Below are positions 14,355 to 62,400 of a DNA stretch of 64,000 bases, piece after piece. The stretch comes from Thermodesulfobacteriota bacterium (GTDB lineage Bacteria > Desulfobacterota_D > UBA1144 > Nemesobacterales > UBA2774): NCBI GenBank assembly GCA_041753155.1, contig JBGSVA010000028.1, forward strand, positions 11,960 to 75,959, read 5' to 3'. The position numbers were made by a program, and so were the translations under genes. Under the pieces are notes generated by a model, which saw only the letters and a list, made by a program, of their open reading frames with translations, made no database searches and was not told where the DNA came from. Position 1 is the first letter of the stretch. Every line of letters begins with the position of its first letter.

Positions 14355-15237
14355 GGGGGGGGAACCTCTCTCGGTCTACTTCCAGGATTCCCTTCATATC
14401 CTCTCGACACGCTTAATGATTTACTATCCGGTCCTCGGCCCTTAGAAGAGCTGTAATGCGTCTATATCCGTACCTGCCATAAGTACATGCAAGACTTACT
14501 ATATCCCTTCTTAGGATCTCTCCTTCCCTGATTTGTTTGATTGATGTCGCCGGACCGAACGCGGTTGGTTAAGAACCCTGCATGCCCTCCGCTCCGATAC
14601 GCCCAGCTTCTGCTGTACATATACCGCACATGTATGTCTACGTTCGGTTCCCCATATAATACATAAGCATCTTTAGCAAGGGCTATAGTATTAAGACTAA
14701 AGTATTATATTAAAGACAATGACTAGTTCGTTTTTAAGTGAAAAGAAATACTTAAGTTTTATTCACATATTACCTTAACCTGTATATAATAATATTCGGG
14801 GTAGTATTAATTTTATAGTGGTCGGATATGATAAAAGGTTCCGCCTTAGACTATTCGGATCCACATTTCTATGTCGATATCATGCGAGGATATACAAGAA
14901 TGCTGTCTATCCGCTATCATGATAACCCTCTCGACACTCTTCTAACTGGTCCAGATTTGATCGGACAACCCCGCCAGGTTCTTGGCTATTCTGAACATTT
15001 TATTATGCTCTTATACTGTATTCGGTGACGTGTTGGGGGAGGGTATCAAATGCTAGCAATTATGAAAATTTTAGTGTCAGATTGCTCGCAAAATATGCAT
15101 ATACAAACTAAAAATTTTCTAACTGGTGAAATGAGTTATGCAAATAGAGGGATATGAGTACGACTAAATTAAATTTAGTAGAAATAATAAATTTATAAGA
15201 GATACTTGTACACGTACATCAAGTCGACAGGTAGGGC

Positions 15238-15951
15238 ATGATAATAATGGGCATGATTGAGAATACCAAAATTATGAAACCAACTCTTGACGAACCACTA
15301 TCGCTCAATCAAAACATCGATCAAAATACTCATAATCTTGTATTTGTATTAAGTATTAATTACGAAATTGTATTCGCGAATCCCAACCTTAAAAGTATTT
15401 TGTGTTATAAAGTCGAAGGTTTTCTGGGTACGAACTTTTTTCAACATGTTCATACTGACGATTGTGAGAGGGTAAAGGCCGAATTTGATAATACATTTAG
15501 AATTTTTTCCAAATTAATCAGACTGGATAATTATGAACTAAATGACGGCAACGTTTTTAAGTTAGCAGCAAAAGACCAGATTAAAACTTTCCTACAAAAC
15601 TATTCTAAATCACTCAGAACGCTGTCTGCAATTAGGCCGATTATGTTCAGAGTTAAACGAAAGAATGGAAAATGGTGCTGGCTTGAAAGCAGCGGTATCC
15701 CTTTTGTTGCTGAACATGGCGAGATCATGATAACGATTTCAGCTCGTGACGTCACAGGGAGCATTAAGCTGCAAAAGTTGCTTAAAATGAACTTGAGAAA
15801 GCTGAACAAAAAATACAGGTATGAGACTATAGTACGTACCGTAACACAGTATGTCCATAAATCGATAAATATACGGGAAGTATTCGAGAATGCCGTCGAT
15901 GCTATTCACAATAACGTACTGGGAGCGAAATATGTGTTTCGATTCATATAA
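15238..15951 (+). CDS. Sensor histidine kinase, N-terminal fragment (PAS plus the first half of a GAF domain), disrupted by an apparent frameshift
   Basis: PAS core RVKRKNGKWCWLESSGIPFVAEHGEIMITISARDVTG. The sequence ends inside a GAF domain (...VLGAKYVFRFI*), and the same GAF continues in another frame from about 15917. Confidence 0.7.
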   Translation: MIIMGMIENTKIMKPTLDEPLSLNQNIDQNTHNLVFVLSINYEIVFANPNLKSILCYKVEGFLGTNFFQHVHTDDCERVKAEFDNTFRIFSKLIRLDNYELNDGNVFKLAAKDQIKTFLQNYSKSLRTLSAIRPIMFRVKRKNGKWCWLESSGIPFVAEHGEIMITISARDVTGSIKLQKLLKMNLRKLNKKYRYETIVRTVTQYVHKSINIREVFENAVDAIHNNVLGAKYVFRFI

Positions 15952-16058
15952 TTGAAGACGGCAATGCGGTCATCAAGGCTTATAGGGGATACCCTGACAG
16001 ATTTATTGATAGAATAAGAATAATTCCATATCCCAAAGACTATACATGGAAGACCATA

Positions 16059-17489
16059 ATGGATGAGAAGTCCATATATTGTGCCAATGTGGACAGGGAT
16101 ACTATAGTGGGCAGAGTAGGAAGGGAAATCGGAGTTAGAAGCTATTTATCAATGCCTATTCATTCCAGGAATAGCGTGCTGGGTGTGATAAATATTAGCT
16201 CAAACAAAAATAATATATTCGACCAGGACGAGTTGATTCTGCTTGAACTTATAGCGCAGCAAATAGAAACCGCTATTAATAATGCAAGGAAGGTGGAAGA
16301 GTTAAGGAAGAGTGAAAAGCGTTTCAGGACCCTCTTTGAAAATGTGCCGACCGGGATGTTTAGAATCACTCCCGACGGCCAGTTGCTGGATGCGAATCCG
16401 GCGTTCGTAGGGATGCTGGGTTTTTCATCTACTGAGGAATTGGTCGTGCATGAGATTGATCGCCAGTATTTAAAGTCGGATGTCGACTGGAAGGAAGTTA
16501 AGAAGACCATAGAGCGGGACGGAGAGATAAAGGGTTTGGAATCGGTGTGGAATAAGCGGGACGGAACAAAGATATTTGTACTGGAGAATATTACAGTGAT
16601 TAGATCAACTGACGGGAATGTTTTATTTTACGAAGGAACAATTGAAGATATTACTAAACGTAAAGTAGCGGAAAATAAGTTGAAAGAGGTTAATTTAAAT
16701 CTGGAAATGGAGATTAGCAGAAGAACTGCTCAACTGATAAAAGCTAATGAGTACCTGCGAAAGGAAATATCCGAGAGGAGGCTGAAGGAAGAAGAGCTTA
16801 AGAAATCATACGACCAGCTTCGTGCACTGACAAAACACTTGGAGTCGGTACGCGAGGAAGAAAGAACCAAAATATCGCGGGAGGTCCACGATGAGCTGGG
16901 GCAGTCACTGACTGGTCTGAAAATTGACCTCGACTTGTTGAAGAAGCAGCTCAGCGAAAGCGGTAACAACCGCGAAAACGATAAACTAACTGAAGGGATT
17001 AGGAACATGGCATCTCTCATCGATTATAACATTCAGTCAGTTCGAAGAATAGCCATGGAGCTGAGGCCCGGCGTCCTCGATGATCTGGGAACGGTTGCAG
17101 CAATTGAATGGCAGTTACAGGATTTTGAGAAGAGAACGGGTATTAAGTGCCGGTTCAGTTCAGGAGTCGAGGATTTTCCATTGAGCCGTGAGGTATCGAC
17201 TGATTTATTTCGTATCTTTAAGGAGGTCATCACAAATGTCGCTCGTCATTCGAAAGCGACACTTGTCAAAGTGAGGTTGAAGGAGTATCGCAACAAATGT
17301 TTGCTCGAAGTTCAGGATAACGGAGTGGGGATCTCGAATGACGTCATTGTTGCTCCGCAGTCCCTGGGCTTACTCGGAATAAAGGAACGCGCATTGGGTA
17401 TCGGGGGAGATGTCAAGATAACGAGTGAATTTAATAAGGGAACAAAAATTATAGTAGTTGTCCCGAAAGGGAGGTGTTCTAATGATTAG
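16059..17489 (+). CDS. Sensor histidine kinase, C-terminal part (GAF C-half, PAS, HisKA_3, HATPase_c; NarX/DegS type)
   Basis: Motifs GVRSYLSMPIHSRNSVLGVINISS (GAF), FRTLFENVPTGMFRITPDGQLLDANPAF (PAS), EEERTKISREVHDELGQSLTGLKIDL (HisKA_3 H-box), QDNGVGIS and GLLGIKERA (HATPase). The reading frame is open upstream to about 15917 (IEDGNAVIKAYRGYPDRF...). Confidence 0.8.
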   Translation: MDEKSIYCANVDRDTIVGRVGREIGVRSYLSMPIHSRNSVLGVINISSNKNNIFDQDELILLELIAQQIETAINNARKVEELRKSEKRFRTLFENVPTGMFRITPDGQLLDANPAFVGMLGFSSTEELVVHEIDRQYLKSDVDWKEVKKTIERDGEIKGLESVWNKRDGTKIFVLENITVIRSTDGNVLFYEGTIEDITKRKVAENKLKEVNLNLEMEISRRTAQLIKANEYLRKEISERRLKEEELKKSYDQLRALTKHLESVREEERTKISREVHDELGQSLTGLKIDLDLLKKQLSESGNNRENDKLTEGIRNMASLIDYNIQSVRRIAMELRPGVLDDLGTVAAIEWQLQDFEKRTGIKCRFSSGVEDFPLSREVSTDLFRIFKEVITNVARHSKATLVKVRLKEYRNKCLLEVQDNGVGISNDVIVAPQSLGLLGIKERALGIGGDVKITSEFNKGTKIIVVVPKGRCSND

Positions 17490-18150
17490 AATATTAATTG
17501 CGGACGATCATCCGGTTGTAAGACTGGGTTTAAAATTAATACTCGAAAAAGAACCCGACATTTCTGTGAATAGTCAGGCGAGAAACGCACGCGAAGCTCT
17601 GGATCTGGTCGATGGAACGGAAATCGATGTCGTATTGCTCGATATATCGTTGCCAGACAGGAACGGACTCGACGTATTGCATCAGTTGAGGATAGAGCAC
17701 CCCGATATCAAGGTGTTAGTCATAAGTATGCATTCCGAAGACTTATATGCCATCAGAGTTCTAAAAGAAGGCGCATTTGGGTATGTGACAAAGGACAGTG
17801 CACCGGAGGAACTTGTGAAAGCCGTCAGAAAAGTTGTATCCGGCGGTAAATATATAAGTTCGTCCCTTGGTGAGAAACTGGTTTACGGACTGACAAGCGA
17901 GATTGAAAGTACCCCCGATCATTCACTGTCCAACCGTGAATTTCAAGTGATGTGTATGATCGCTTCCGGAAAGACAATAAAAGAAATATCAAAAGTACTT
18001 TATTTGAGTGGAAAGACCGTAAGTACATACCGATCACGTATTTTAAAAAAAATGAATTTGAAGAATAATGCCGAATTAATCACTTATACGATAAGGAATA
18101 ACCTGCTCCAAGTCTTGATTCCCGGCATCTGTATGTCTATTCTGATTTAA
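17482..18150 (+). CDS. LuxR/NarL-family response regulator (REC plus HTH)
   Basis: RBS GGGAGG. MIRILIADDHPVVRLGLK...DVVLLDISLPDRNGL (receiver domain). C-terminal LuxR HTH: NREFQVMCMIASGKTIKEISKVLYLSGKTVSTYRSRILKKM. Confidence 0.85.
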   Translation: MIRILIADDHPVVRLGLKLILEKEPDISVNSQARNAREALDLVDGTEIDVVLLDISLPDRNGLDVLHQLRIEHPDIKVLVISMHSEDLYAIRVLKEGAFGYVTKDSAPEELVKAVRKVVSGGKYISSSLGEKLVYGLTSEIESTPDHSLSNREFQVMCMIASGKTIKEISKVLYLSGKTVSTYRSRILKKMNLKNNAELITYTIRNNLLQVLIPGICMSILI

Positions 18151-18432
18151 TCATACAAGGCCGATTCCTCGGAATTACGCGCCCATTTCAACCCTGTTTC
18201 CCACCCGGATGATTTCTTCATTTTATCAAATAAGCATGAGAACAGGGTGATTACCGTATGTTCCTAAACGCCCGTTTTAACCTCTCGGAGTTATTCACCT
18301 GGCCTGGCTATTTGTAGGACGGGCCCTACAGGTCAACTATCCATAATCCTATATGATTAAGAGTCTTTCGCTGATATTCAAATGGTAAACGGTGTTCTAT
18401 GCTGGACTTAAGTGTCTGGTCAAGAGGAGCAG

Positions 18433-18807
18433 ATGAAGGTCTTGGTGGTGGATGATTCTAAGATAATTCGTGATAGATTGGTCAATTTGCTGTCTGGGAT
18501 AAAGGGAGTAGAAACTGTGGCTCAGGCTGAAAACGCAAAAATAGCGATGTCGACCTATCGGACCATCAAACCAGAAGTTTTAATATTGGACATACGCATG
18601 CGTGGAGTAAACGGAATAGAGCTGTTAAAACAGATTAAGAACGAGCAGCATGCCTCCAAGGTTATCATGCTGACAAATTTTCCTTACCCCCAATACAAGA
18701 AAAAATGCATTGAGGTGGGTGCGGATTATTTTCTAGACAAGTCTACTGAGTTCGATGAGATAAATGTAATTATACGGAGTATGGTGGAGGAATACGGACA
18801 TATATAG
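18433..18807 (+). CDS. Single-domain CheY-like receiver protein
   Basis: RBS AGAGGAG. MKVLVVDDSKIIRDRL...LILDIRMRGVNGIELL...KVIMLTNF. No output domain. Confidence 0.8.
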   Translation: MKVLVVDDSKIIRDRLVNLLSGIKGVETVAQAENAKIAMSTYRTIKPEVLILDIRMRGVNGIELLKQIKNEQHASKVIMLTNFPYPQYKKKCIEVGADYFLDKSTEFDEINVIIRSMVEEYGHI

Positions 18808-18822
18808 TTGGCGAGGAGGCGT

Positions 18823-19404
18823 ATGAGCAGGGTTATTGATAGATATCGTCTTGCTTCAGAAATTGAGGACTCGATTTATTCAGACGAATGGCCGGAACCG
18901 TCCCGATGCAAGCTATGGTATGCAGTCTACGCTATTGTAAGGCACGAAAAAGCTGTCAACACTGCGCTTATTAATAATAACATTGAGACATTCTTGCCGT
19001 TGAGAGAGGTTGTCAGTCAATGGAAAGACCGGAGAAAGAAAGTCCGTATTCCGCTATTTCCGGGATACATGTTTGTGAGGATATTCGATAAAGATTCGCG
19101 CAGCATATTCTGTGTTTTGAACACGAAAGGGGTTGTCAGAATTCTGGGTTCAAATGGAAGCTTTCAGCCTGTGCCTGCTCAGCAGATCGATTCGGTAAAA
19201 CGCCTCCTGGAAACGAATGTTGAGTACGACCCTTATCGATATTTGGTCAAAGGGAAAGAAGTTACGTTGGTAAATGGACCACTTAATGGTGTAACTGGAA
19301 GGATTGTGGATAGAAAGGGTCAGAAAAAGTTGATTGTATCGATCGATATTATTAAGCGTTCAATCTCGGTAACGGTTGATCCGGCCGATGTCGAGCTTGT
19401 ATAG
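18823..19404 (+). CDS. NusG-family transcription antiterminator paralog (UpxY/RfaH/TaA-like; NGN plus KOW)
   Basis: RBS GGAGG. NGN domain: WYAVYAIVRHEKAV...LFPGYMFVR. KOW domain: KGKEVTLVNGPLNGVTGRIVDRKGQKKLIVSIDII. Confidence 0.8.
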   Translation: MSRVIDRYRLASEIEDSIYSDEWPEPSRCKLWYAVYAIVRHEKAVNTALINNNIETFLPLREVVSQWKDRRKKVRIPLFPGYMFVRIFDKDSRSIFCVLNTKGVVRILGSNGSFQPVPAQQIDSVKRLLETNVEYDPYRYLVKGKEVTLVNGPLNGVTGRIVDRKGQKKLIVSIDIIKRSISVTVDPADVELV

Positions 19405-19562
19405 AAAGTTGTACCGATGGGAGGAGCAATTGATTTTAGAATCGGACTTGATGTAAGTGAGGTGGCGAAGCTGTACCGAGGACGGAAGTCAGGGGTGCTG
19501 GATCATAAACAACGATGATTATATGTCATATGTACTTACGCATAATCATGCAGGAGATTGTA

Positions 19563-20570
19563 ATGTGTAACAAAATATCATTCTTTATATTTTTCTTTGC
19601 TGCTATGATAGCAGGTTGCGGCGGAGGAGGAGGGACGGTGAACACCTCTCGGGTGTCCCGGCAGGACTTTCAGTCTTCTCAAGAAGTCGGTAATATTAAT
19701 TCCCGTCTTCTTTCACAGCCTATTCCTGCAAATACCTCAGCGCCGGACGGATATCTGATAGGACCTGCCGATTTACTCGAGATAAAGGTTTTCGAGTCTG
19801 AGGAACTGACCAGTACAGTGCGTGTAAGTTCAAAGGGAGAAATCACCCTGCCACTCCTCAATAGTATCTATGTCGACGGGCTCACTGCACGCGATGCAGA
19901 AGTCAAAATCGAAAACCTCCTAAGGGAGGACGAGTATATAGATAACCCTCATGTGGGTGTATTCGTTAAGGAATACAGGAGCAAAGTTGTGTCTGTGATG
20001 GGTTATGTAAATCAGCCTGGGGTCTACGAGTTACTCGATAGGAGAACTTTACTTGATGCTTTAGCATCGGCGAAGGGGTTAAACGACAAAGCGGGAAACT
20101 TGGTTTATGTGACGAGAACCGAAGGCGACGGGAGTAAAGATACTTATCTGGTTGATCTTGATGAACTTATTACCAGCAAAACTCCCGAGAATAATATAGA
20201 ACTCAAACCCGGAGATCTGGTTTTTGTACCGGAAGCAGCGAATGTATTTGTTGAAGGAGCCGTTGACAGACCAGGCGCATATCCTATTACTGAAGGTAAA
20301 ACTACTCTCAGTGAAGTAGTCACAATGGCCGGCGGGGTTTCGAGTGTTGCGGATAAGGGTGATATAAAGCTGATCCGGAATCTCGGCAACGGAGGCAAAG
20401 AGGTGATGGATCTTGATATGAATAGGATACGTAAGGGTGAGGACGAAGACCCTATTCTTAATGGAGAGGATGCAATCGTGGTAGGGGCCAGCTCAATTAA
20501 AAGTTTTATCTACGGCTTTAAAATCAATCTATTTGGTTTCGGTGGGGTTGGCTTCGAACCTCCCAGGTAA
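19563..20570 (+). CDS. Polysaccharide export lipoprotein, Wza/Poly_export family
   Basis: RBS AGGAG. Lipoprotein signal MCNKISFFIFFFAAMIAGC. PES motif GPADLLEIKVFESEELTSTVRVSSKGEITLPLL, followed by SLBB-like repeats. Confidence 0.8.
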   Translation: MCNKISFFIFFFAAMIAGCGGGGGTVNTSRVSRQDFQSSQEVGNINSRLLSQPIPANTSAPDGYLIGPADLLEIKVFESEELTSTVRVSSKGEITLPLLNSIYVDGLTARDAEVKIENLLREDEYIDNPHVGVFVKEYRSKVVSVMGYVNQPGVYELLDRRTLLDALASAKGLNDKAGNLVYVTRTEGDGSKDTYLVDLDELITSKTPENNIELKPGDLVFVPEAANVFVEGAVDRPGAYPITEGKTTLSEVVTMAGGVSSVADKGDIKLIRNLGNGGKEVMDLDMNRIRKGEDEDPILNGEDAIVVGASSIKSFIYGFKINLFGFGGVGFEPPR

Positions 20571-20613: not shown

Positions 20614-22908
20614 ATGGATAAGAAAATGAATCGTACAGGAAAGCAAATAACTAAAGTAGAGGTCCTGGATTTAGATGACCGGAAAAAAGATATACAGTCT
20701 ACTGTAAATCATCCGGACTATGATTTATACATTGATGAGGGATCAAGCCTGAATGAATATATAAGCGTTATCAAAAGGAGAAAAAAGGTCGTATTGGCAT
20801 GTTTATTTATATCAATACTCATTGTCGGTGTTGCATCCATTACGATGCAGAAAATATATAAAGCTACAACAACTATCGAAATTGCACCCGACGATCCCAA
20901 AGTGACGGGTTTTCAGGAGGTAATGGAAGTTAAAATCCAGGAACAGGATGAGTTCTACGAAACTCAATATAAGTTATTAAAAAGCAGGTCTCTGGCTAGA
21001 GACGTAACGAACAAATTAAATCTGAAAGCACATCCGGAATTCGATCCTAATAAAAAGCCCGGAGTACTAACCATCATAAAAGATGCAATCGCAGGTTTGA
21101 TAATGAAAATTACGGCTTCGGGGAAAGACGAATATCCGATTCAAGGTCTTAAGGAGCTATCCGAAGAAGAGAGATTAACTGATGCATTTTTACGCCGGGT
21201 GAGTGTTGCACCCGACAGGGATTCCAGACTGGTCGAAGTGAGTTTTGAGAGCATCGATCCCAAACTATCGGCAAAAGCTGTAAATACCCTGGCGAATCAG
21301 TATATTGAATGGGTATTGGAAAAAAAACACGGTGTGACGAAGGCTGCGGTTCAATCCCTCAACACACAGCTTAAGAGACTAAAGGAGAAGCTCAAAGAAA
21401 CCCAGGATGAACTTAGCGAATTCGCAAAGAAGTGGGATATAGTATCTTTGGATAAGGATCTCAATCTTACCTATAAGCAGCTCGCGGATTTAAACGAGGC
21501 ACTTGCAAAAGCGGAAACCGAAAGGCTGTCCCAGGAGGCGATCTTTGAAGAAACAAAAGCAGGGAACTATGAATTATTACCGCAAGTTATGAGTGATCCT
21601 TCTATTCGTCAGCTCAAAACTGAGTATGTGAAGCTTCAATCGCAGTACGACAATCTCGATGCAAGATATGGTGTGAATTATCCTGATATGAAAGAGATAA
21701 GTGCTCAAGTTACAAGGGTTCGATATGAATTAGAAAGCCAGTTAAACGAAATTTCACGGAGCATTAAAAAAGGTTACGAGGCAGCAAAGAAAAAAGAGGA
21801 TATACTCAGACAAAGAACAGATGTACAGAAAACACGTGCTATGGAGCTAAATGAAGTGGCAGTACAATACCAGATTCTGCAGAGAGAGGTTGACACGAAT
21901 AAAACAATTTACCAGGACCTGCTCCAGAGACTAAAAGAAACTGAAGTAACGTCGGGAATAAGGGCAACTAACGTACAAGTCATTGACTATGCTTCCCCTC
22001 CGCTCAAACCATACAAGCCAAATATCTTATTTAATGTTTTGATCGCGGGTATCATGGGATTAATGACAGGGGTTATGCTTGCTTTCGGATTTGAACACTT
22101 TGATAGAACAATTCGCGATGAGGAAGACATTAAAAGAAGATTCCCGATTCCGTTTATGGGTAAGATACCGGCTGCCAGCAGAAGTGAAGTCGGTATTCTT
22201 AGTAAGATTGTTTACACAAACCCGCTGTCCAATATATCCGAAGCTTTCCGGGTGCTTAAAACATCAGTTCTATATACAACCCGAAATGACAGTGCTCCCA
22301 AAGCACTTCTTGTAACAAGCACTCAGCCATTGGAAGGGAAGACTACGGTATCCTGTAACTTGGCGCTTACCATGGTTCAGTCGGGATTAAAAGTAATACT
22401 TGTCGATGCGGATTTAAGAAGACCTAGCCTTCATAAGATTTTTATGGCAAACGTTAAGAACGGGAGTGGAATGAGTACATACCTGAGCGGTAAGACAAAT
22501 ATTGAAAGTATTATTTATCATACCGAAATTGATGGCCTTGATGTAATACCCGTCGGTCCTATAATGCAGAATCCCGCCGATTTAATCGATTCCAAACCAA
22601 TGAAACAATTAATCGAACGATTGGTCAAAGACTACGATAACGTTATTCTGGATGGTATCCCGGTCATGGAATTGGCTGACACACGTCTGCTTTCCAGACA
22701 GGTTGACGGTGTTCTTCTTGTCGCCAGCATGGGGATCGCACACAGAGATGCGTTCAAGAATAGCATAGAAGAACTCATGAAAGTCGGGGCAAGAATAATC
22801 GGAGTTGTCATAAACAGAGTCGACATAGGAAGCATGTTTGGAGGTTCCTATAACTATAATTATAGGCCGGAAGATAAAGAAAAGAAGAAAACAACGGTGC
22901 AAGTGTAA
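20614..22908 (+). CDS. Wzc-like polysaccharide co-polymerase / BY-kinase (PCP-2a)
   Basis: RBS GAGGAG. N-terminal Wzz-type TM and coiled-coil region, then a C-terminal CpsD/CapB P-loop (LVTSTQPLEGKTTVSCNLA, VILVDADLRRP), then a Tyr-rich tail GGSYNYNYRPED. Confidence 0.85.
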   Translation: MDKKMNRTGKQITKVEVLDLDDRKKDIQSTVNHPDYDLYIDEGSSLNEYISVIKRRKKVVLACLFISILIVGVASITMQKIYKATTTIEIAPDDPKVTGFQEVMEVKIQEQDEFYETQYKLLKSRSLARDVTNKLNLKAHPEFDPNKKPGVLTIIKDAIAGLIMKITASGKDEYPIQGLKELSEEERLTDAFLRRVSVAPDRDSRLVEVSFESIDPKLSAKAVNTLANQYIEWVLEKKHGVTKAAVQSLNTQLKRLKEKLKETQDELSEFAKKWDIVSLDKDLNLTYKQLADLNEALAKAETERLSQEAIFEETKAGNYELLPQVMSDPSIRQLKTEYVKLQSQYDNLDARYGVNYPDMKEISAQVTRVRYELESQLNEISRSIKKGYEAAKKKEDILRQRTDVQKTRAMELNEVAVQYQILQREVDTNKTIYQDLLQRLKETEVTSGIRATNVQVIDYASPPLKPYKPNILFNVLIAGIMGLMTGVMLAFGFEHFDRTIRDEEDIKRRFPIPFMGKIPAASRSEVGILSKIVYTNPLSNISEAFRVLKTSVLYTTRNDSAPKALLVTSTQPLEGKTTVSCNLALTMVQSGLKVILVDADLRRPSLHKIFMANVKNGSGMSTYLSGKTNIESIIYHTEIDGLDVIPVGPIMQNPADLIDSKPMKQLIERLVKDYDNVILDGIPVMELADTRLLSRQVDGVLLVASMGIAHRDAFKNSIEELMKVGARIIGVVINRVDIGSMFGGSYNYNYRPEDKEKKKTTVQV

Positions 22909-23140: not shown

Positions 23141-24628
23141 ATGAACCTGCTTAATTTAAGAACACAAGAGCAATATACAAAAGTCGGCTTTAACAATCGT
23201 ACTTTGGAAAAGATGCGATGGGTGGAGATCACTCACATGTTGCTTGATATTGTTTTTATTCTTTTAAGCACCTCTGTGGTTTTTGTTATACGGTTTGTGC
23301 CAGGTTTGTATAGCGACGGCCTGCTTGATAACGGCATCCTCTCACTTACCAGATATGAATATTTTACCAATTACATAGGTTTTCTGATTATCTATCTTGT
23401 ACTCGTAATCCTCCTGTTCAATAACTATGACCTCTATTCCACAACTGCCATAAGGTTATGGTTGGACGAGGTATTATTGGTATTTAAATGTATTTCTATG
23501 GGTGCACTGGTGCTCATGGTGGTTTTGTATTTGTCTAAGCAGCAGATTTCGCGTTTCGTCGTAGTTTCAGGTTGGGCCTTAAATATCTTCGCTGTAATAG
23601 GTTGGAGGTATATAAAACACAAAATTGTTGAAAGGAAAATCAAAAATGGCGACGGATTAAGGAGCGTTCTTATCGTAGGCGCCGGAAGGGTTGGAAATAA
23701 GCTCGCCGAAATCCTAGAAAATAATGATCATTTGGGATTAAAGGTAGTAGGCTTTGTGGATGATTACAAAGAAGGCGAAAGTATTTTGGGCAGGGTAAAA
23801 GACATGCCCAGGATTTTACAGAGGCAATTTATTGATGAGGTCTTTGTCACGATACCTTCTGAGAGGGAATTGGTTAAAAGAGTTACAAATCAGGCTTTGA
23901 TTCACAAAGCCGATGTAAAGGTCATACCGGACCTTCTTGACGGCATTGTTTCTCTCAACCGTCCTTTATCTCTGGGATTTTTCGGTGAACTGCCAGTAAT
24001 GGAAATATACCGAAAACCTATTCCCGAGCTCGGTCTATTCCTCAAAGGGTCGATCGATATTTTAATCGGGTTTGCAATGTTAGCGATTACATGTCCGATC
24101 CTTATTGCGGTTGCCATCTTAATTAAAATAGACTCCCGCGACGGGCCTGTTATATACAGTTCGCGACGGGTGGGTAAGAAGGGGAAACTTTTCAATTGCT
24201 ATAAGTTCCGTACGATGTTGGTAAATGCTGATGAGATGAAGCAGGAGCTCAGAGATCTCAACGAGAGAAGCGGGCCGTTTTTCAAAATCAAAGACGATCC
24301 CCGAATAACGAAAGTAGGAAAATTCTTAAGAAAGTACAGCTTGGACGAGCTTCCTCAGATCTTTAATCTCTTGGCGGGAAATATGAGTGTTGTAGGGCCG
24401 AGGCCCCATCCGTTGGATGATTTTAAACTCTACGATATTAAAGATTATAGGAGACTCGATGTAAAACCTGGCATAACGAGTCTATGGGCGGTGGAAGCAA
24501 GGAACGATCCTTCTTTTGAGCGCAATATGGAGCTTGACCTATATTATATTGAGAACTGGGATATCTGGCTTGATCTGAAAATAATATTGAAAACTATTCC
24601 GACCGTGCTTAAAGGCTCAGGTACCTAA
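23141..24628 (+). CDS. Undecaprenyl-phosphate sugar phosphotransferase (WbaP/CpsE-type initiating enzyme)
   Basis: N-terminal TMs plus the bacterial sugar-transferase motif: PVIYSSRRVGKKGKLFNCYKFRTM, SLDELPQIFNLLAGNMSVVGPRPH. Confidence 0.9.
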   Translation: MNLLNLRTQEQYTKVGFNNRTLEKMRWVEITHMLLDIVFILLSTSVVFVIRFVPGLYSDGLLDNGILSLTRYEYFTNYIGFLIIYLVLVILLFNNYDLYSTTAIRLWLDEVLLVFKCISMGALVLMVVLYLSKQQISRFVVVSGWALNIFAVIGWRYIKHKIVERKIKNGDGLRSVLIVGAGRVGNKLAEILENNDHLGLKVVGFVDDYKEGESILGRVKDMPRILQRQFIDEVFVTIPSERELVKRVTNQALIHKADVKVIPDLLDGIVSLNRPLSLGFFGELPVMEIYRKPIPELGLFLKGSIDILIGFAMLAITCPILIAVAILIKIDSRDGPVIYSSRRVGKKGKLFNCYKFRTMLVNADEMKQELRDLNERSGPFFKIKDDPRITKVGKFLRKYSLDELPQIFNLLAGNMSVVGPRPHPLDDFKLYDIKDYRRLDVKPGITSLWAVEARNDPSFERNMELDLYYIENWDIWLDLKIILKTIPTVLKGSGT

Positions 24629-24698: not shown

Positions 24699-26024
24699 TT
24701 GCAGAATCTGATCAAGAAAATCCGTTTTGGCGCAAACAGCAGCGTTGGCAAAAATATCATTTCACTCTATCTATTGCTGGTATCCTACTACGTTCTGCCG
24801 CTCATCACTGTTCCTTATCTTGTGCGCATGTTGGGACCGGAGAAGTTCGGACTTGTGGCTTTCGGCCAGAGCCTGATAACATTTTTCGTGTTATTTGTTA
24901 ACTATGGTTTTGACCTCACAGCAACAAGGCAAATATCGATTAATCGTGAGAGTGATGAACAAGTAAGCCGTATTTCGTGCAGTGTGTGGTTTGCCAAAGC
25001 CCTTTTAGCGTCATTTGGATTCATCGTCCTGATAATATTGATCTTATTTGTTCGGAAAATGAATCAGAATTCCATGCTCTTGTTACTTCTGTTCGGAACT
25101 GCCGTTGGGAATATGCTGTTTCCGAATTGGCTCTTTTTAGGACTCGAGAGGATGAAAGCTATTTCTGTGATTAATATAACAATGCGAGTATTCACAACTT
25201 TGTCGGTATTCATTCTTATTCGAGACCCTGAGGATTACCTGCTCTATGCGGGGCTACTTTCATTTCAATGGATATTTGCAGGCATAAGCGGCGTTTGGTT
25301 CGCAATTGCAAGACTGAAGATTAGAATTACTATTCCGGAAGCACGCAATATTTTTCAGGTGATGTCGGATGGTTGGAGTTTGTTTGTATCGAATATAGCT
25401 CAGAGTATCTACTATTCGGGAAATAGCTTCATTCTGGGTTTTTTAACATCAAATTATTCGGCGGTAGGTTACTACAGCGCAGCTGAAAAAATTGTGCTTT
25501 CACTCGTTGGGTTGTACAGACCGGTAGCTCAGGCAGCTTATCCCTGGTTCTGCAAGATGGCTTCATCATCTAAAAATTCGGTTCTCCTCTGGGGGAAGAG
25601 ATTGATCTATGTTCTGGGGGGGTTGGGTCTTGTGGCATCTTTAACCATTTTTTTTGGTGCCCATATCATAGTCAAGGTAATTCTGGGGCCGGGATACGGT
25701 CCTTCTGTAGCTGTTCTCCAGATTCTGTCGGCGTTACCATTTGTAATTGCGCTCTCCGACGTGCTTAGCAATCAGATAATGCTATCGTTTAGCAAGGACA
25801 GACTTTATGCTCTGATCCGTGTATTTACCGCTCTGTTACACGTTGTGCTTGCTTTATTGCTCGTTCCCAGATTACAAGAAAACGGTATAGCGTTAGTGTT
25901 TATTTTAAGTCAGTCATTCATTCTGGTTTCCACTTTTCTTTTCTTGTGGTATTGGGAACTGACTCCTCTCCATTATAAAATCGACAAGAAGATCCCCCAC
26001 AGTTCCTTTAATTCTGGAAACTGA
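24699..26024 (+). CDS. Wzx-type oligosaccharide flippase (MOP superfamily)
   Basis: Twelve-TM profile: NIISLYLLLVSYYVLPLITVPYLVRMLGPEKFGLVAFGQSL. The in-frame start is TTG at 24699, with no ATG until TM1. Confidence 0.75.
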   Translation: MQNLIKKIRFGANSSVGKNIISLYLLLVSYYVLPLITVPYLVRMLGPEKFGLVAFGQSLITFFVLFVNYGFDLTATRQISINRESDEQVSRISCSVWFAKALLASFGFIVLIILILFVRKMNQNSMLLLLLFGTAVGNMLFPNWLFLGLERMKAISVINITMRVFTTLSVFILIRDPEDYLLYAGLLSFQWIFAGISGVWFAIARLKIRITIPEARNIFQVMSDGWSLFVSNIAQSIYYSGNSFILGFLTSNYSAVGYYSAAEKIVLSLVGLYRPVAQAAYPWFCKMASSSKNSVLLWGKRLIYVLGGLGLVASLTIFFGAHIIVKVILGPGYGPSVAVLQILSALPFVIALSDVLSNQIMLSFSKDRLYALIRVFTALLHVVLALLLVPRLQENGIALVFILSQSFILVSTFLFLWYWELTPLHYKIDKKIPHSSFNSGN

Positions 26025-27648: not shown

Positions 27649-28865
27649 AGAGACAAGAATCTTTAACCGGCACGAAAGTGGCATGGCTCATCCCCTCGAT
27701 GGCAAGGAATTTTTTTCACTGGCTGCCATTAATTGAGGAATTTTCTAATATTTTTCCGGACACTACTGTTTTTACGGGTCTTTGTCCCGAGGATATTTCC
27801 AGCGAAACAGTGTCGTTTAACCTCAAGATTGTTGGGAAAACAAGGTTCATCAAACTAGGAAAGAAAGAATCGCGTTACGAGAAGGTCATTATAGTTCCAC
27901 CGCTGGACATTCCGTTTCATCTGTTAAAATTCCTTCCGCAAGTTATTTTAACGTATGGGTTTTCAATATGGACGGTTATTGTGTTACTCCTTAAACCATT
28001 TACCGGGTGGCGGGTAATTGTTGTTTATGAAGGCAGCACTCCAACTGTAGATGACAGGGAATCAAAGTTACGTACATTCGGACGTAAGTTAATGACCACG
28101 GGATCTGATGCGTTCCTGACAAATACTCACTCCGGCAAGTCATACCTTGTTGAATTTCTGAAAGCGAATAAAGAACTTGTATTCGTACGTCCCTATTTGC
28201 TTCCGGACATTAAATATCTGACTCAAAAGGAAGTGGATGTGAAAAAACTGCTCGTGGATGCGCCGCGACCTGTTTTTCTTTACGTCGGATTAATAATTCA
28301 GCGCAAGGGTCTTAAATTCCTCATAGAAGCCTTCGCTGCATTAAAAAGAAAAGGATACGATGAATACACCCTCGTGATCGTGGGGGACGGCCCGCAGCGT
28401 GGAGAGCTTGAGGACATAGTCAAAAAACGAGAAATCGAAAAGCAGGTGAGATGGATGGGCTGGTTTGATTATAATAGCCTAGGATATTTCTATAATTCAT
28501 CGGATATATTCGTATTCCCGACTTATGAAGACACATGGGGCTTGGTTGTGCTTGAAGCAATGGCATTTGCAAAACCTGTCTTGTGTTCTAAGCTGGCAGG
28601 AGCTCAGGAAATGATCCAAGAAGGAGAGAACGGCTATACTTTTAATCCCGATTGTGATACGCCTGACGCTCTAGCCGAAATTATTAAAAGATTTATTGAT
28701 AACCCGGACATTATACGCCCTATGGGAGAGAAGTCAAAAATACTGGTCTCGTCTCACACTCCCAGAGCTGTTGCTGATTATCTGAAATGTATTATCGAGT
28801 TCGCTTTGGGGTTGAGGGACAGAAGCTCCGGGAAATTTGCCGAATACCCTCAAAAACAACATTAA
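27645..28865 (+). CDS. Glycosyltransferase family 4
   Basis: FLYVGLIIQRKGLKFLIEAF...VFPTYEDTWGLVVLEAMAFAKPVLCSKLAGAQEMIQEGENGYTF. The start overlaps the upstream stop (ATGA). Confidence 0.85.
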   Translation: MKRQESLTGTKVAWLIPSMARNFFHWLPLIEEFSNIFPDTTVFTGLCPEDISSETVSFNLKIVGKTRFIKLGKKESRYEKVIIVPPLDIPFHLLKFLPQVILTYGFSIWTVIVLLLKPFTGWRVIVVYEGSTPTVDDRESKLRTFGRKLMTTGSDAFLTNTHSGKSYLVEFLKANKELVFVRPYLLPDIKYLTQKEVDVKKLLVDAPRPVFLYVGLIIQRKGLKFLIEAFAALKRKGYDEYTLVIVGDGPQRGELEDIVKKREIEKQVRWMGWFDYNSLGYFYNSSDIFVFPTYEDTWGLVVLEAMAFAKPVLCSKLAGAQEMIQEGENGYTFNPDCDTPDALAEIIKRFIDNPDIIRPMGEKSKILVSSHTPRAVADYLKCIIEFALGLRDRSSGKFAEYPQKQH

Positions 28866-28929
28866 TTATATCCCTGCACTCAGTACCGGCAGTTTAGTCG
28901 TTCCCTGTGTCTTTGAGGCAGAAAATAAG

Positions 28930-39658: not shown

Positions 39659-39659
39659 C

Positions 39660-40718: not shown

Positions 40719-40723
40719 TAAAG

Positions 40724-41956
40724 ATGGTATACGAAAATATTTCAAAATGCCGTTCATGCGGCCATAACGAACTTGATCTGGTGATCTCATTCGGCGAGAC
40801 ACCGCTTGCGGACAGGCTTCTGACCCCTGACAGCTTGAATCGTTCGGAATTGAAAGTACCGCTCGATCTGGTTTTTTGTCCCAATTGCTCCCTTGTGCAG
40901 ATTACGGAAACGGTATCGCCGGAGATACTCTTCTGCCAGGACTACCCCTATTTCTCTTCGACATCGGAGACGCTTCTCCGCCATTCTCGAGAGAATGCCG
41001 TGGAGCTGATCGTATCGAGGCATCTTGACTCCGAGAGCTTAGTAATCGAGGTCGCGAGCAATGACGGCTACATGCTTAGAAACTTTGTTGAATGTGATAT
41101 CCCTGTTCTGGGTATTGATCCTGCACGGGGTCCTGCCGGCGCGGCAAGGAAAGCGGGGATCCACACGCTCTGTACGTTTTTCAATACGGACCTCGGAAAG
41201 ATGCTGGCTGACAACGATATGCTTGCCGATGTTGTTATCGCCAATAACGTGCTCGCCCACGTGGCTGATCTGAACGGGTTCGTCGAGGCCATAAAAATAG
41301 TTTTAAAAGATGACGGCTGCGCCGTCATCGAGGTCCCGTATTTATCCGATCTGATTCAGAAATGTGAATTCGACACCATCTATCATCAGCATCTATGTTA
41401 CTTTTCGGTTACGGCGCTCGACAGGCTTTTCAGGGCGCGCGGGTTTTATCTTAACAAAGTCAGAAGAATTCCGATACACGGGGGCTCCCTTCGTCTATTT
41501 GTGGAGAAGCATGAATGCGTGGATAAGAGTGTCGTGCAGATGTTAAAAGAGGAGCGTGATGCGGGGATGAATGATCTGGATTTCTATTCCAGGTTTGCAG
41601 ATCGGGTAGATGTTATCCGGAACGCTCTCTCTGTGATGATCAGGGAAATCAAGGAAAACAACATGAGAATTGCTGCATACGGTGCAGCCGCTAAGGCTAC
41701 GACGCTGCTTAGTTACTGTGGGATCGGCAGGGATTACCTGGAATATATAGTGGATTTAAATACATTCAAACACGGACGGTACATGGGAGGGAGCCATTTA
41801 CCCATACTTCCCACTCACAAATTGCTCGACGACATGCCGGATTATGTTTTGTTGCTGGCCTGGAATTTTGCCGAGGAAATCTTGAGACAACAAGAAGCGT
41901 ATATTCAGAGAGGTGGAAAGTTTATTGTCCCTATCCCGCATCCTACTGTTCTCTAG
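40724..41956 (+). CDS. Zinc-ribbon / class I SAM methyltransferase with a C-methyltransferase-type C-terminal domain (TylC3/NovU-like architecture)
   Basis: RBS GGAG. N-terminal [10 protein letters not shown]...CPNCSLVQ. MTase motif [17 protein letters not shown]-terminal Rossmann-like block [14 protein letters not shown]...[23 protein letters not shown]. Confidence 0.75.
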
Positions 41957-46096: not shown

Positions 46097-48337
46097 ATGA
46101 CATTATATATTACTCTAGCGCCTATCACTCTTATATATATTTTTTTGTCTCTTTTGTCTTGCGGGAATGACTCCGGTGGTGAGAAAAGTGAATGGCCATA
46201 TCTCTCAAGCAAGCACGGTGACATTCCCAAGCCCGGGCCGTCTAAACAACAAACTGCAAGCCTGATATTCGATGCTGATAACGATAGCGTTAATGATTTT
46301 GTAATAGGCAGCCGGCGGAAGGGACCCTCCGTTTTCCTTTATAGTCGCTCAGCGGACGGATGGAAGAAATACATTATAGAGGATGATACTCTTCCAATCG
46401 AGGCCGGTGGAGCTTTCTACGACATGGACGGTGACGGCGACCTTGATATTGTTTTAGGGGCTGATGCGTCGGATAACAAAATATGGTGGTGGGAAAATCC
46501 CTACCCGGATTTTGACCCGGAAATACCATGGAAGAGGTACATTTTAAAAGATACCGGCGCAAAAAAACATCACGATCAAATCTTCGGAGACTTTGACGGA
46601 GACGGGCAGGCGGAACTGGTTTTCTGGAATCAGGGTGCTAACAAGCTTTTCATATCGGATATTCCCTCAGATCCGAAAAATACGGAGCCTTGGCCCTATA
46701 CCGAAATATTTACGAGTGAGTCCGAATCCGAAGGCCTCGCATCGGGAGACATCGATCTGGACGGCAAGCGGGACATTGTGGGAGGGGGGCGCTGGTTTAA
46801 ACACCTCGGAGGAAATCTCTACGAGCCTGAGATCATAGACGACGACCAACGATTTTCACGGGCTGCCGTTGGCCAATTAATTAAAGGGGGGCGGCCGGAG
46901 GTTTTATTTGTCGTAGGTGATGGGGTAGGGTTCCTAAAGTGGTATGAATGGGAAGATGGCAGGTGGACAGGGCACGATCTGCTGGAAATTGAAGTCGATC
47001 ACGGGCACTCGATTGAAATCGAAGATATGGACGGGGACGGGAATCCGGATATCTTCTGTGCGGAAATGAGGCTCGACGGTAAGAACGAAGATGCGAAAAC
47101 ATGGATATTTTACGGCGACGGCGGCGGCAACTTTACGAAAAGAGAGATTGCTGCCGGGTTCGACAATCATGAATCGAAGGTAGGCGATCTGGACGGCGAC
47201 GGCGATCCCGATATTCTAGTTAAACCCTACAACTGGGATACCCCCCGTATAGATATACTGCTTAACAATTGGGGTTGGAAACGCCACGTGATTGATGCGG
47301 ATAAGCCTTGGCGTAGCATATTTATTACATCAGCTGACCTGGATGGAGACGGGGAAAAAGACATTATCACGGGTGGCTTCTGGTATAAGAATCCCGGTTC
47401 AATCGATGGAAAATGGGAACGCATTCCGATCGGCGGATCATGTAATAATATGGCCCTGGTTTTTGATTTTGACGGTGACGGGTATATGGACATCTTGTGC
47501 ACCGAAGGTAAGGGTTCTGATCCCAATTCCACTCTCTTATGGGCCCGGAATGACGGCTCCGGAAATTTTGATATGATGAAAAATATCCCCGGAGCCGATG
47601 GAGATTTCCTGCAGGGTGTTGCCGCGGCTCGTTCTCAAAACGGAACGATTCAAATTGCGCTTTCCTGGCACGAAGAGGGTAAGGGGATTCAGATGTTGAC
47701 TGTCCCGTCGGACCCTTCAGGTGATCGGTGGAGCATGCTAAAAGTATCCGATTTTTCTCAGGATGAGGCCTTGAGCTCAGGGGATATAGACCGGGATGGT
47801 GATGCGGACATACTCCTGGGTACGAAGTGGCTCCGGAATAACGGTTCGTCCTGGGAGGTTATGACGATATTCGACACAGACGGTCCCCCCGACCGCAATA
47901 TTCTCGCGGATATCAACCGGGACGGTAAGCTCGATGCAGTGGTTGGATTCGAAGCGATCAGCAAACCCGGAAAGCTCGTTTGGTATGAGCAAAATGGCCA
48001 TCCGTCGGCTCCCCTGTGGGAGGAACACCTGATCGGGGTAATAACGGGGCCTATGAGTCTCGATGTCGGGGATTTAGATAACGACGGAGACCTCGACGTC
48101 GTTGCAGGTGAGCACAATATCGAGGAGCCGTCGAGGGCGAAGCTCTACTTCTTTGAAAATGAAGACGGCAGAGGGACAAGCTGGGTAAGACACATAGTAC
48201 ATATAGGTGACGAGCATCACGACGGTGCTCAGCTCGTGGATATTGACGGTGACGGGGACCTCGATATCATCTCGATCGGCTGGACTCATCCGAATGTAAT
48301 TCTTTATGAAAATAAACCGCATCTGCAAACCCAATAA
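46097..48337 (+). CDS. FG-GAP/VCBS-repeat beta-propeller lipoprotein
   Basis: Lipobox LSLLSCG. More than 10 Ca-binding-loop repeats of type DxDGDGxxDIhhG (DMDGDGDLDIVLGA, DFDGDGQAELVFWN, DLDGDGDPDILVK, DIDGDGDLDIISIG, and others). Confidence 0.8.
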   Translation: MTLYITLAPITLIYIFLSLLSCGNDSGGEKSEWPYLSSKHGDIPKPGPSKQQTASLIFDADNDSVNDFVIGSRRKGPSVFLYSRSADGWKKYIIEDDTLPIEAGGAFYDMDGDGDLDIVLGADASDNKIWWWENPYPDFDPEIPWKRYILKDTGAKKHHDQIFGDFDGDGQAELVFWNQGANKLFISDIPSDPKNTEPWPYTEIFTSESESEGLASGDIDLDGKRDIVGGGRWFKHLGGNLYEPEIIDDDQRFSRAAVGQLIKGGRPEVLFVVGDGVGFLKWYEWEDGRWTGHDLLEIEVDHGHSIEIEDMDGDGNPDIFCAEMRLDGKNEDAKTWIFYGDGGGNFTKREIAAGFDNHESKVGDLDGDGDPDILVKPYNWDTPRIDILLNNWGWKRHVIDADKPWRSIFITSADLDGDGEKDIITGGFWYKNPGSIDGKWERIPIGGSCNNMALVFDFDGDGYMDILCTEGKGSDPNSTLLWARNDGSGNFDMMKNIPGADGDFLQGVAAARSQNGTIQIALSWHEEGKGIQMLTVPSDPSGDRWSMLKVSDFSQDEALSSGDIDRDGDADILLGTKWLRNNGSSWEVMTIFDTDGPPDRNILADINRDGKLDAVVGFEAISKPGKLVWYEQNGHPSAPLWEEHLIGVITGPMSLDVGDLDNDGDLDVVAGEHNIEEPSRAKLYFFENEDGRGTSWVRHIVHIGDEHHDGAQLVDIDGDGDLDIISIGWTHPNVILYENKPHLQTQ

Positions 48338-56993: not shown

Positions 56994-57195
56994 TGCTGAA
57001 CAGAAATTAGATTTGCAGGCTGAAAAGGGCAAACTGCTAGAAATGGCAGGACGCAAAGCTTCTGGCCTAAATCGTGATTTCTCCCCTTACCATTTCATTT
57101 CGTTAACACGGGGATCGTCATGGACATGGCAGCAGGGTTACCGGCTTGGAGGTACCTCTTCAAGTCTGCAATTTCGGGATTAGAGGAGGAACCGA

Positions 57196-59340: not shown

Positions 59341-59353
59341 AGGGAGGAAAATA

Positions 59354-61555: not shown

Positions 61556-62077
61556 AATATATGGCGTATAAGGCTGGTTACGGGTTTGTATGTGCAGTAA
61601 TTTAGTATTCAAATGTAGATCCGGATTATCTATTCACTGAAGCTGTCTTCCTCGATCATCAAAATAAACACAGTTTGTCTGACAGTTTATCTCAGGGAGT
61701 CTATTTTGATGCCGTATTTTTTTGTTGTGCTCCTCTCATCAAAGTCTCGGGGTACCATAAATGGAAAAGGAGCCTATTACCAGGAGCAATGCGTTAAAAG
61801 TTCTATTACATGTTGCTAAATCCATCCTTCTGATGTTCGTAGCGGCTGCTGTAGCGCTAATAATGACGCGTTTTCTGCTGTACTTAATCGGGAATTAACA
61901 CCATCCAAAACCGCCCCCCCTGGAATTAACGAGTCGGGGTATCCGGGACCGGTTATACTCCATCCTATAATTAATTCTCTTCTAAACGGTCTGGCCTCAA
62001 AACCTCCCCAATATTTCAATTAATTTTCTATAAGGGTTGGGAATAGTCTTTATGTTTTTCCGAGCCCGAAAATCTAG

Positions 62078-62341
62078 TCTCACATTAAGTTCCCAAGGAG
62101 GAAATGGGGACTTGCAGTTCAAAGTAGCGGAATAGAAGATGTGGTATTCCATGAAATATGACGTACTTCCGGTACGAGGCTGATCGAATTAGGGGTTCCG
62201 CTTCATTCTGTTAGTAAGCTATTAGGCCATGCGAGTATTAAAACAAACGAACGAACATATAGCCACCCATATAAGAGTATTAGAAGGGGTGTTGAGCTAT
62301 TGGATAAGCAGGATTCACAAGAAGCATGGGAAAGCGATTAA
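62078..62341 (+). pseudogene. Tyrosine recombinase (phage-integrase family) C-terminal remnant with an in-frame TGA at the catalytic Arg position
   Basis: Translation ...VVFHEI*RTSGTRLIELGVPLHSVSKLLGHASIKTNERTYSH... matches the integrase C-terminal consensus (HxLRHT...LLGHxxxxxTxxYxH, with the nucleophile Tyr in TYSH). There is no N-terminal or core domain upstream. TAG at 62075 closes the frame upstream and TGA lies at 62159. Confidence 0.7.
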
Positions 62342-62400
62342 CATCCTATTGGCAAATTGAACTTTGATAGGGTTTTCGAGCACAGGATATTCCCGATGCG

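Follow-up and report, generated by a model that had tools for sequence, protein, structure and literature searches.

Gene clusters for O-antigen and capsule, such as the rfb and cps loci of enterobacteria, have a low guanine-plus-cytosine (GC) content and are exchanged between strains, with conserved genes on their flanks. The capsular polysaccharide loci of Bacteroides carry an antiterminator, UpxY, and in deltaproteobacteria such as Geobacter riboswitches of the class that senses cyclic di-GMP (c-di-GMP), c-di-GMP-I or GEMM-I, precede genes for extracellular proteins. Here, we describe a locus of about 48 kb that shares features with each of these systems. It lies at 14355-62400 of a 64,000-nucleotide (nt) stretch of a metagenome-assembled genome (MAG); this whole stretch is called the window, and coordinates are those of the window unless a related locus is named. 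We consider it very probable that the locus is a horizontally acquired genomic island of polysaccharide genes. Its host is an uncultured member of Candidatus Dadabacteria, which the NCBI taxonomy treats as a class within Thermodesulfobacteriota.

Dadabacteria are known only from metagenomes, and a limited full-text search of the literature for polysaccharide loci or genomic islands of this class found none, returning community-survey papers only. The island illustrates clearly, in a class that has been little studied, a phenomenon well known elsewhere, and it changes no general concept; its value is that of a well-resolved gain of a complete, self-regulated exopolysaccharide locus in that class. 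It suggests that surface polysaccharides vary here through the processes of cultured bacteria, namely island gain, recombination across junctions and gene decay, and it ties a predicted c-di-GMP sensor to matrix-associated secreted proteins in this group.

Insertion site and base composition

The block fills the spacer that separates a convergent pair of native genes, DUF3943 paralog 2 (ending at 14354) and a cupredoxin gene (stop codon at 62401), and its junctions are sharp, each no more than about 10 nt from a flanking stop codon. The protein of DUF3943 paralog 2, used to scan GTDB species genomes, gave six loci, all in MAGs. Five related Dadabacteria MAGs (L001, L003, L004, L005 and L006) have an empty site, at which homology to the window stops at 14357-14364 and restarts at 62401-62414, leaving the flanking genes contiguous and 0.16-2.1 kb apart. 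The DNA in the gap has native GC and measures 2.1 kb in L001, 0.8 kb in L003, 1.9 kb in L004, 1.85 kb in L005 and 0.16 kb (158 bp) in L006. It holds nothing in L006, a gene for an FkbM-like methyltransferase in L003 (6930-7706 of that locus), and such a gene together with a glycosyltransferase of family GT2 in L001 (11624-13550). The L001 spacer also contains a short second copy of the 3' end of the cupredoxin gene. The spacer between DUF3943 paralog 2 and cupredoxin is variable even without the island.

Besides the window, two assemblies carry the island at the same site. L002, a third-party annotation (TPA) MAG, is the closest relative (TPR gene 95% identical), and its contig ends shortly into the block. 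L007/L022 is a single 62.9-kb ENA megahit contig that was found through a search for Wzc homologs; it has the order GT4, DUF3943-1, DUF3943-2, followed by the island, which runs collinear with window positions 15037 to about 60000. L002 and L007 share the left junction, with homology running through the DUF3943-2 stop codon and restarting at window position 15037, while the filler in between differs. These carriers also bear on whether the block is an artefact of assembly or binning, with a foreign low-GC contig joined to a Dadabacteria contig, as could be suspected for a metagenome-assembled source with so abrupt a GC step. However, the block stands at one and the same site in three independent assemblies (the window, L002 and L007), and its flanks are adjacent in five relatives, which a random chimera would not yield. 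On these two grounds we discount a chimera almost entirely.

Neighbour-joining trees were built on four flanking regions, with L006, the most divergent genome by blastn identity, dropped from all four as a partial match. The window pairs with L002 in each of the three trees that hold both, and L007 joins them in the one region available for it. Their sister clade consists of L001, L003 and L004, with L005 as the outgroup. A single gain by the common ancestor of the window's clade explains this pattern, where loss would require at least three independent clean deletions. Horizontal acquisition had been proposed in an earlier reading of the window made without database searches (the sequence-only reading), and the synteny comparison bears it out: the flanks are adjacent in five relatives, and the block is found at this site in the window's clade alone rather than in all relatives.

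Base composition is likewise not uniform across the window. Pooled GC is 0.569 in 1-14354, 0.431 in 14355-62400 and 0.522 in 62401-64000. Resolved to 1 kb, the profile runs at 0.54-0.61 over 1-14000, with a single dip to 0.47 at 8-9 kb, at 0.34-0.52 over 15000-62000 and at 0.49-0.51 beyond 62000. Resolved to 200 nt, the left step descends from 0.61 (14200-14399) through 0.49 (14300-14499) to 0.30-0.33 (14600-14899) and is completed less than about 300 nt from the stop codon at 14354, and the right step lies exactly at 62400, rising from 0.405 (62200-62399) to 0.57 (62400-62599). The sequence-only reading had described a fall from about 60% GC after 14354 and a return to about 60% at about 62400; both steps are there, but the right flank does not stay at that level, keeping 0.57 for about 700 nt and then declining to 0.39-0.52. 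We regard this flank as native because, despite its declining GC, it is 79-91% identical to relatives. GC at third codon positions (GC3) also sets the island apart, with 0.34-0.59 in 33 island open reading frames (ORFs) against 0.56-0.84 in 7 backbone ORFs (Mann-Whitney p = 3e-5).

These 33 ORFs, each of at least 100 amino acids (aa), all lie on the plus strand and fill 90% of 15238-61555. The more than 35 consecutive plus-strand genes of the sequence-only reading hold for the strand and not for the count, as 36 is reached only with three upstream backbone genes. Two of the overlaps that it listed, 27645/27648 and 40715/40718, are true 4-nt overlaps, whereas 32717/32719 and 39658/39660 are 1-nt spacings and a gap of 503 nt comes after position 50666. 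The genes do not form one intact operon: the sensor kinase gene is frameshifted, and the last two genes have a promoter-like site and a riboswitch of their own.

Edges, copies elsewhere and probable later exchange

Remnants of mobility genes stand at both borders. At the right edge, 62138..62341 (+) carries the C-terminal remnant of a tyrosine recombinase of about 67 codons (translation DVVFHEI*RTSGTRLIELGVPLHSVSKLLGHASIKTNERTYSH...), which confirms the decayed integrase noticed in the sequence-only reading. It matches Pfam Phage_integrase at 39.3 bits over profile positions 127-170 of 172 with the in-frame TGA read as arginine; this TGA stands at the expected position of the HxxR arginine, and nothing of the integrase gene can be recognised further upstream. 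The JGI contig L014, with a beta-helix protein 85% identical, can be aligned to the window as far as 61953, beyond which it has different low-GC DNA, so the conserved cluster ends near 61953 and 61953-62400 is a separate relic. At the left edge, directly after the stop codon of DUF3943 paralog 2, lies a decayed fragment of an IS3-family transposase (14372..14640, minus strand), comprising the N-terminal helix-turn-helix region of OrfB in two frames with stops; a peptide stitched from three-frame translations matches Pfam HTH_21 at 44.7 bits. We considered this fragment as the mark of the original insertion and rejected it, as it is absent from L002 and L007 and hence arrived later.

Four features of genomic islands were tested. 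Three are found here, namely deviant composition (GC and GC3), absence from close relatives with contiguous flanks, and mobility genes at the borders, the last by remnants only; the fourth, att sites or a tRNA gene, is not. Neither a relaxase nor a type IV secretion system nor a coupling-protein domain is present in the Pfam-scanned ORFs, and the integrase is a remnant only; the island is not an integrative and conjugative element or an integrative and mobilisable element. The remnants at the edges, a tyrosine recombinase on the right and the insertion sequence (IS) of the IS3 family on the left, suggest that insertion was mediated by a recombinase or an IS.

Copies of the cluster also occur in unrelated surroundings. 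A 77.7-kb Logan contig (L010/L023), whose Wzc is 77% identical to that of the window, is collinear with the cluster from the sensor-kinase gene through the beta-helix gene at about 68% nucleotide identity, with unrelated genes upstream (GFO_IDH_MocA, an amino-acid permease and a GLUCM-like protein). L025 (Wzc 73% identical) has only the kinase-to-Wzc module, beside an upstream ABC-transporter operon, on a contig that ends just after Wzc, and in L024 (Wzc 72% identical) the 3' end of an IS3-family transposase lies about 160 nt upstream of the kinase gene. Because collinear copies starting from the same sensor-kinase gene occupy different genomic contexts, the cluster behaves as a discrete unit. 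Its GC is 0.40-0.43 in the window, L024 and L025 (L025 flank, 0.49) and 0.49-0.51 in L010/L023, where there is no contrast with the flank. The L010/L023 lineage was rejected as the direct donor on its GC of 0.49-0.51 against 0.43 and its nucleotide identity of only about 68%. The donor was probably a relative, since the closest homologs with a named source come from the same class or phylum.

The three unrelated contexts that begin at the same kinase gene, together with the recurrence of IS3-family elements at the left end, lead us to a further and tentative reading, which we hold to be possible and on balance doubtful: that the cluster of about 47 kb is a self-contained, transferable 'matrix cassette' that moves whole between Dadabacteria genomes. 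Such a cassette, in the same tentative sense, would include its own sensor system, an antiterminator and a c-di-GMP-gated module of secreted proteins, and it might move by a mechanism based on IS3 or a tyrosine recombinase that leaves no classical att repeats. If so, a single transfer could confer a complete, regulated biofilm-matrix phenotype on a recipient.

Several observations weigh against the acquisition of the island or qualify it. Tetranucleotide z-score profiles, one of the checks envisaged in the sequence-only reading, gave no separation of island and backbone at these lengths and were too noisy to be informative: the correlation is 0.36 between backbone and island, 0.37 between the halves of the backbone and 0.38 between the halves of the island, and the values of 0.65-0.83 between relatives' loci and the backbone are raised by homology. 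The right junction is visible in the window alone, the contigs of the other carriers ending earlier. Only about the last quarter of the integrase survives, which makes its connection with the insertion circumstantial. The IS3 remnant belongs to the window only, with no match in L002 or L007 between window positions 14372 and 15036. The att-like repeats envisaged in the sequence-only reading did not appear: no direct repeat of at least 12 nt is shared by the two edges (14301-15300 against 61501-62500), and their longest shared words, 11 nt direct and 10 nt inverted, are no better than chance. The window and 12 related loci contain no tRNA gene, nor does L014 have a tRNA-like sequence after the island end. 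The frameshift in the sensor kinase gene either marks a pseudogene or is an assembly error. No Wzb-type phosphatase (Pfam phosphotyrosine-phosphatase) is found among the 33 island ORFs of at least 100 aa; it could be encoded elsewhere in the genome. The Wzc homologs with a named source all come from the same class or phylum (Dadabacteria or Thermodesulfobacteriota). Finally, other polysaccharide loci of island-free relatives, which carry another Wzc elsewhere, 40-50% identical (P0056, P0097), are themselves partly low in GC, with 0.39-0.45 in the variable part of the L020 locus and 0.41-0.50 in the L021 locus against 0.51-0.58 in its flanks.

Low GC recurs in the polysaccharide loci of this lineage and may be partly a property of this class of loci. 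Hence, low GC alone is no proof of transfer, which is supplied by the synteny. The low-GC Wza/Wzc loci of island-free relatives and the origin of the closest source-named Wzc homologs would also fit a cluster that is ancestral at this site and was lost elsewhere, with a low GC intrinsic to polysaccharide loci by selection or mutation. We consider this very unlikely: the site is empty not only in the sister clade but also in the two more divergent genomes, which sets the deletions counted above against one gain, and the empty sites differ in content, all of native GC, from 158 bp to an FkbM-like methyltransferase with or without a GT2 gene. The copies in unrelated contexts, the recombinase and IS remnants at the edges and a GC3 gap of about 30 points between island and backbone also speak for gain.

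Exchange has probably continued since. Compared with L002 and L007, the backbone of the window is 93-97% identical and the island at 22-33 kb is 87-99% identical, mostly above 90%. The tract at 11.5-21.5 kb, which spans DUF3943-1 and DUF3943-2, the left junction and the regulatory and export genes, is 77-88% identical, with one 500-nt interval at 95%. In this tract L002 and L007 match each other at about 96%, but at 88% in DUF3943-2. Most of the island is 90-99% identical between the window and the carriers, and a distal stretch at 51.1-53.8 kb is lower (73-89%, a range given jointly with the left tract). The divergent tract, which spans the left junction inside sequence that is mostly above 90% identical, indicates homologous exchange among island-bearing strains, with import from a divergent one.

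The block itself could also have come from a strain with the same block at the same site, through homologous recombination between conserved genes on the flanks, as in the locus switching of O-antigen and capsule clusters, the integrase remnant being an unrelated relic. In favour of this are the tract of 77-88% identity that crosses the left junction within sequence mostly above 90%, and in which L002 and L007 agree at about 96%, the lack of att repeats and the unusual divergence of DUF3943-2 among all genomes. However, it explains the spread and reshuffling within the clade but does not account for how the block first reached a site that every outgroup has empty, it leaves the copies in unrelated contexts unexplained, and the right flank is not comparable among carriers. 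We judge it a possible but less likely account of how the block arrived and retain the insertion of an island.

Since its acquisition the island is being reshuffled and partly eroded, as seen in the kinase frameshift and in the variation of the distal genes. L022 lacks the second of three SGNH/GDSL genes (GDSL2), leaving it with two, and the PKD-domain gene; its allele of GDSL3 and the second methyltransferase gene (MT2) is 73% identical to that of the window, and it has a gene for a 347-aa epimerase between the second and third (the last two) methyltransferase genes that is missing in the window (gene table, blastn). L023 has no GDSL genes.

Two side observations concern backbone genes. The tandem DUF3943 paralogs occupy 10752-14354, and paralog 2 is 84-88% identical between close genomes against 92-96% for its neighbours, which is consistent with diversifying change in a putative surface protein. 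The hisS gene for histidyl-tRNA synthetase (8030-9394, minus strand) has a GC of 0.48 and a GC3 of 0.56, against a hisS GC of 0.57-0.61 in all six relatives. Its nucleotide identity to each relative is 70-74%, including L002, in which the neighbouring genes are 93-95% identical, and its best protein match in a large database is only 76% identical. To judge from these values, a lower-GC allele of an unsampled lineage seems to have replaced this one gene in place.

Gene content and predicted product

The sequence-only reading had assigned a Wzx/Wzy pathway with its own regulators to the block, and the Pfam and NCBIfam matches agree. All genes of the island described here are on the plus strand. 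The first encodes a sensor histidine kinase with the domains PAS-GAF-PAS-HisKA_3-HATPase (Pfam; 15238..17489), which a +2-nt indel near 15936 divides into two ORFs, 15238-15951 and 16059-17489 (the window reads ATGTGTTTCG and L007 reads ATGT--TGCA, from the tblastn frame switch and the nucleotide alignment); the kinase is intact in L002 (749 aa) and L007 (747 aa). Next come a response regulator of the NarL/LuxR type (17458..18150; Pfam Response_reg 101.7 bits and GerE, helix-turn-helix, 66.5 bits), a stand-alone receiver-domain response regulator (18412..18807; Response_reg 89.7 bits) and an UpxY-family NusG-like antiterminator (18808..19404; NCBIfam NF033644 128.2 bits, cutoff 100; Pfam NusG), whose matches to the RfaH, LoaP and NusG models stay below their cutoffs. 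The sensor kinase, frameshifted here, and the LuxR-type regulator would control expression, and the antiterminator would keep RNA polymerase processive through the long same-strand array. The ops/JUMPStart core GGCGGTAG has 3 matches against 1.4 expected, none of them in a leader, and no leader element for the antiterminator was identified. Scans for promoters and terminators returned no more sites than shuffled sequence did, and the positions are used as hints only.

The export and assembly genes follow. They encode a Wza-type outer-membrane polysaccharide export protein (OPX; 19515..20570; Pfam Poly_export and SLBB domains), a Wzc-type copolymerase and tyrosine autokinase of class PCP-2a (20614..22908; Pfam Wzz, GNVR and AAA_31; TIGR01007 166 bits, cutoff 108) with the C-terminal tail ...SYNYNYRPED..., an initiating polyprenyl-phosphate glycosyl-1-phosphate transferase of the WbaP/WcaJ class (23141..24628; Pfam Bac_transf 218.6 bits; TIGR03025 393 bits, cutoff 295.55), a Wzx-type flippase (24699..26024; Pfam Polysacc_synt 165 bits, above cutoff) and a Wzy-type polymerase (32719..34197; Pfam Wzy_C 51.4 bits, cutoff 31.7). 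All components that define the Wzx/Wzy pathway are present, that is, the initiating transferase, Wzx and Wzy, and the OPX and PCP-2a proteins Wza and Wzc. Among and after these genes lie seven for glycosyltransferases. Five belong to GT4, among them two that overlap by 4 nt (26350-27648 and 27645-28865; Pfam Glycos_transf_1), one at 31485..32717 (Glycos_transf_1, 104 bits) and one at 34557-35744 (Pfam); one is a WecG/TagA-family GT26 enzyme (35837-36610; Pfam) and one a GT2 enzyme (37837-38826; Pfam). An SDR epimerase/dehydratase (Pfam, NCBIfam) is encoded at 36655-37707.

Between the second and third of these GT4 genes, 28837..31470 encodes a conserved protein of about 850 aa without a family assignment. 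Its central region resembles P-loop kinases (Pfam Thymidylate_kin 24 bits, below cutoff; thymidylate kinases in the PDB at E = 3e-6, a weak similarity), and in our reading of the sequence a C-terminal HGDF...DWE motif resembles phosphotransferases of the APH type. The protein is kept at the same position in L007 (18304-20844), L010 (17454-20009) and L024 (13478-16018), and we infer that it may phosphorylate the glycan or a precursor.

A CDP-sugar module at 38882..41956 comprises a glucose-1-phosphate cytidylyltransferase (38882-39658; NCBIfam TIGR02623 360 bits, cutoff 300), an SDR epimerase/dehydratase (39660-40718) and an NDP-sugar C-methyltransferase (40715-41956; Pfam Methyltransf_13 and Methyltransf_14). 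It is followed by genes for an APH-like phosphotransferase (42074-43219; Pfam), a 354-aa protein with neither a family match nor a match to a PDB sequence (43284-44348), an alkaline-phosphatase-family enzyme (44366-45964; Pfam) and a beta-propeller protein with FG-GAP/VCBS repeats (46097..48337; Pfam FG-GAP_3 181 bits). The last accompanies the cluster in L022 and L023 too. It also has near-full-length homologs, about 60% identical, in very distant taxa (MAGs labelled Methanosarcinales, ANME-2, Chloroflexota, Anaerolineales and Methylomirabilis), an unusually high conservation across domains. Three paralogous SGNH/GDSL esterases or acyltransferases (48495-49595, 49689-50666 and 51170-52288; Pfam) come next, the first and third being a diverged duplicate pair, 72-77% identical and 2693 nt apart (direct repeats D2 and D4), and then three methyltransferases dependent on S-adenosylmethionine (52488-53792, 54143-55321 and 55730-56386; Pfam).

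After an 809-nt gap, the distal part has a promoter-like site (56950-56977; TTTACA-16-TATAAT) and, 40 nt downstream of it, a c-di-GMP-I (GEMM-I) riboswitch aptamer (57018..57145, +) that matches Rfam RF01051 at 67 bits (gathering 35) over model positions 1-87 of 87. The aptamer lies 50 nt upstream of a gene for a PKD-domain protein (57196-59340; Pfam), in which a 1179-nt internal tandem duplication of about 80% identity lies within 57560-59314 (repeats D1 and D3); a gene for a protein with a right-handed beta-helix and fibronectin-III domains follows (59354-61555; Pfam). Both proteins have a hydrophobic N-terminus and are probably secreted, and the beta-helix protein may be an enzyme that modifies or cleaves polysaccharide, or a matrix protein. 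The homologous aptamer of L022 (20793-20910) scores as the GGC variant and stands directly ahead of the beta-helix gene, the PKD gene being absent, and in L023 no aptamer reached threshold. Responding to c-di-GMP, the riboswitch would gate the last two genes. At the end of the part conserved with L014, a 45-codon ORF (61761..61898, +; from the ORF lists) has the same length in L014 (2848-2985), about half of its residues differing, and may encode a small hydrophobic membrane protein. A second riboswitch of the c-di-GMP-I clan lies outside the island, at 2593-2685 (+), where the GGC variant RF03167 scores 64.7 bits (gathering 59) about 190 nt upstream of a native backbone gene for a 1513-aa TPR-repeat protein (2873-7414).

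Functions are read here from the established roles of the families, and the biochemical order, the role in antitermination, the output of the riboswitch and the mechanism of insertion are inferred as well. The product is predicted to be a heavily decorated heteropolysaccharide that depends on Wzx and Wzy and is exported by Wza and Wzc. The WbaP-class phosphotransferase would start the repeat unit on the polyprenyl phosphate carrier, and the five GT4, one GT26 and one GT2 enzymes would extend it with sugars that include a C-methylated one derived from CDP-glucose. Methyltransferases, kinases and SGNH acyl-esterases would decorate the unit, Wzx would flip it across the membrane, Wzy would polymerise it, and Wzc and Wza would set the chain length and export the polymer.

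Comparison with known systems

In its gene content the island is like the loci for group 1 capsule and colanic acid in Proteobacteria, with Wza, Wzc, a WbaP-class transferase, Wzx, Wzy, glycosyltransferases and NDP-sugar genes on one strand. Unlike those loci, which have Wza-Wzb-Wzc, it has no Wzb among its ORFs, its host is a Dadabacteria MAG, and at 48 kb it is much longer, its large distal part encoding methyltransferases, kinases, SGNH esterases and secreted proteins with repeats. With the rfb and cps clusters it shares a GC below the genome level, conserved flanks, strain-variable content and a recombination tract across a junction. It departs from them in that the site in relatives is empty or holds one or two small genes, with no alternative polysaccharide cluster there, in that its leader has no JUMPStart/ops element, and in that the cluster is also found at unrelated loci.

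As in the capsular loci of Bacteroides, a NusG paralog of the UpxY family is encoded by the locus itself at the head of a long same-strand polysaccharide cluster, although its gene comes after the two-component system and not first, the phylum is another one, and no UpxZ partner was identified. The island resembles integrase-associated genomic islands in its deviant composition, its absence from relatives, and the tyrosine recombinase at one edge and IS fragment at the other. It is unlike tRNA-adjacent, att-flanked islands in that only about 67 codons of the integrase are left, interrupted by a stop, and there are neither att repeats nor a tRNA target, and the scanned ORFs include none of the conjugation or mobilisation genes of integrase-associated islands. 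Finally, the predicted aptamer described here lies inside an acquired polysaccharide island, but its arrangement is like that of the GEMM-I riboswitches of deltaproteobacteria such as Geobacter: a full-length RF01051 aptamer between a promoter-like site and genes for putatively secreted proteins, here the PKD and beta-helix proteins.

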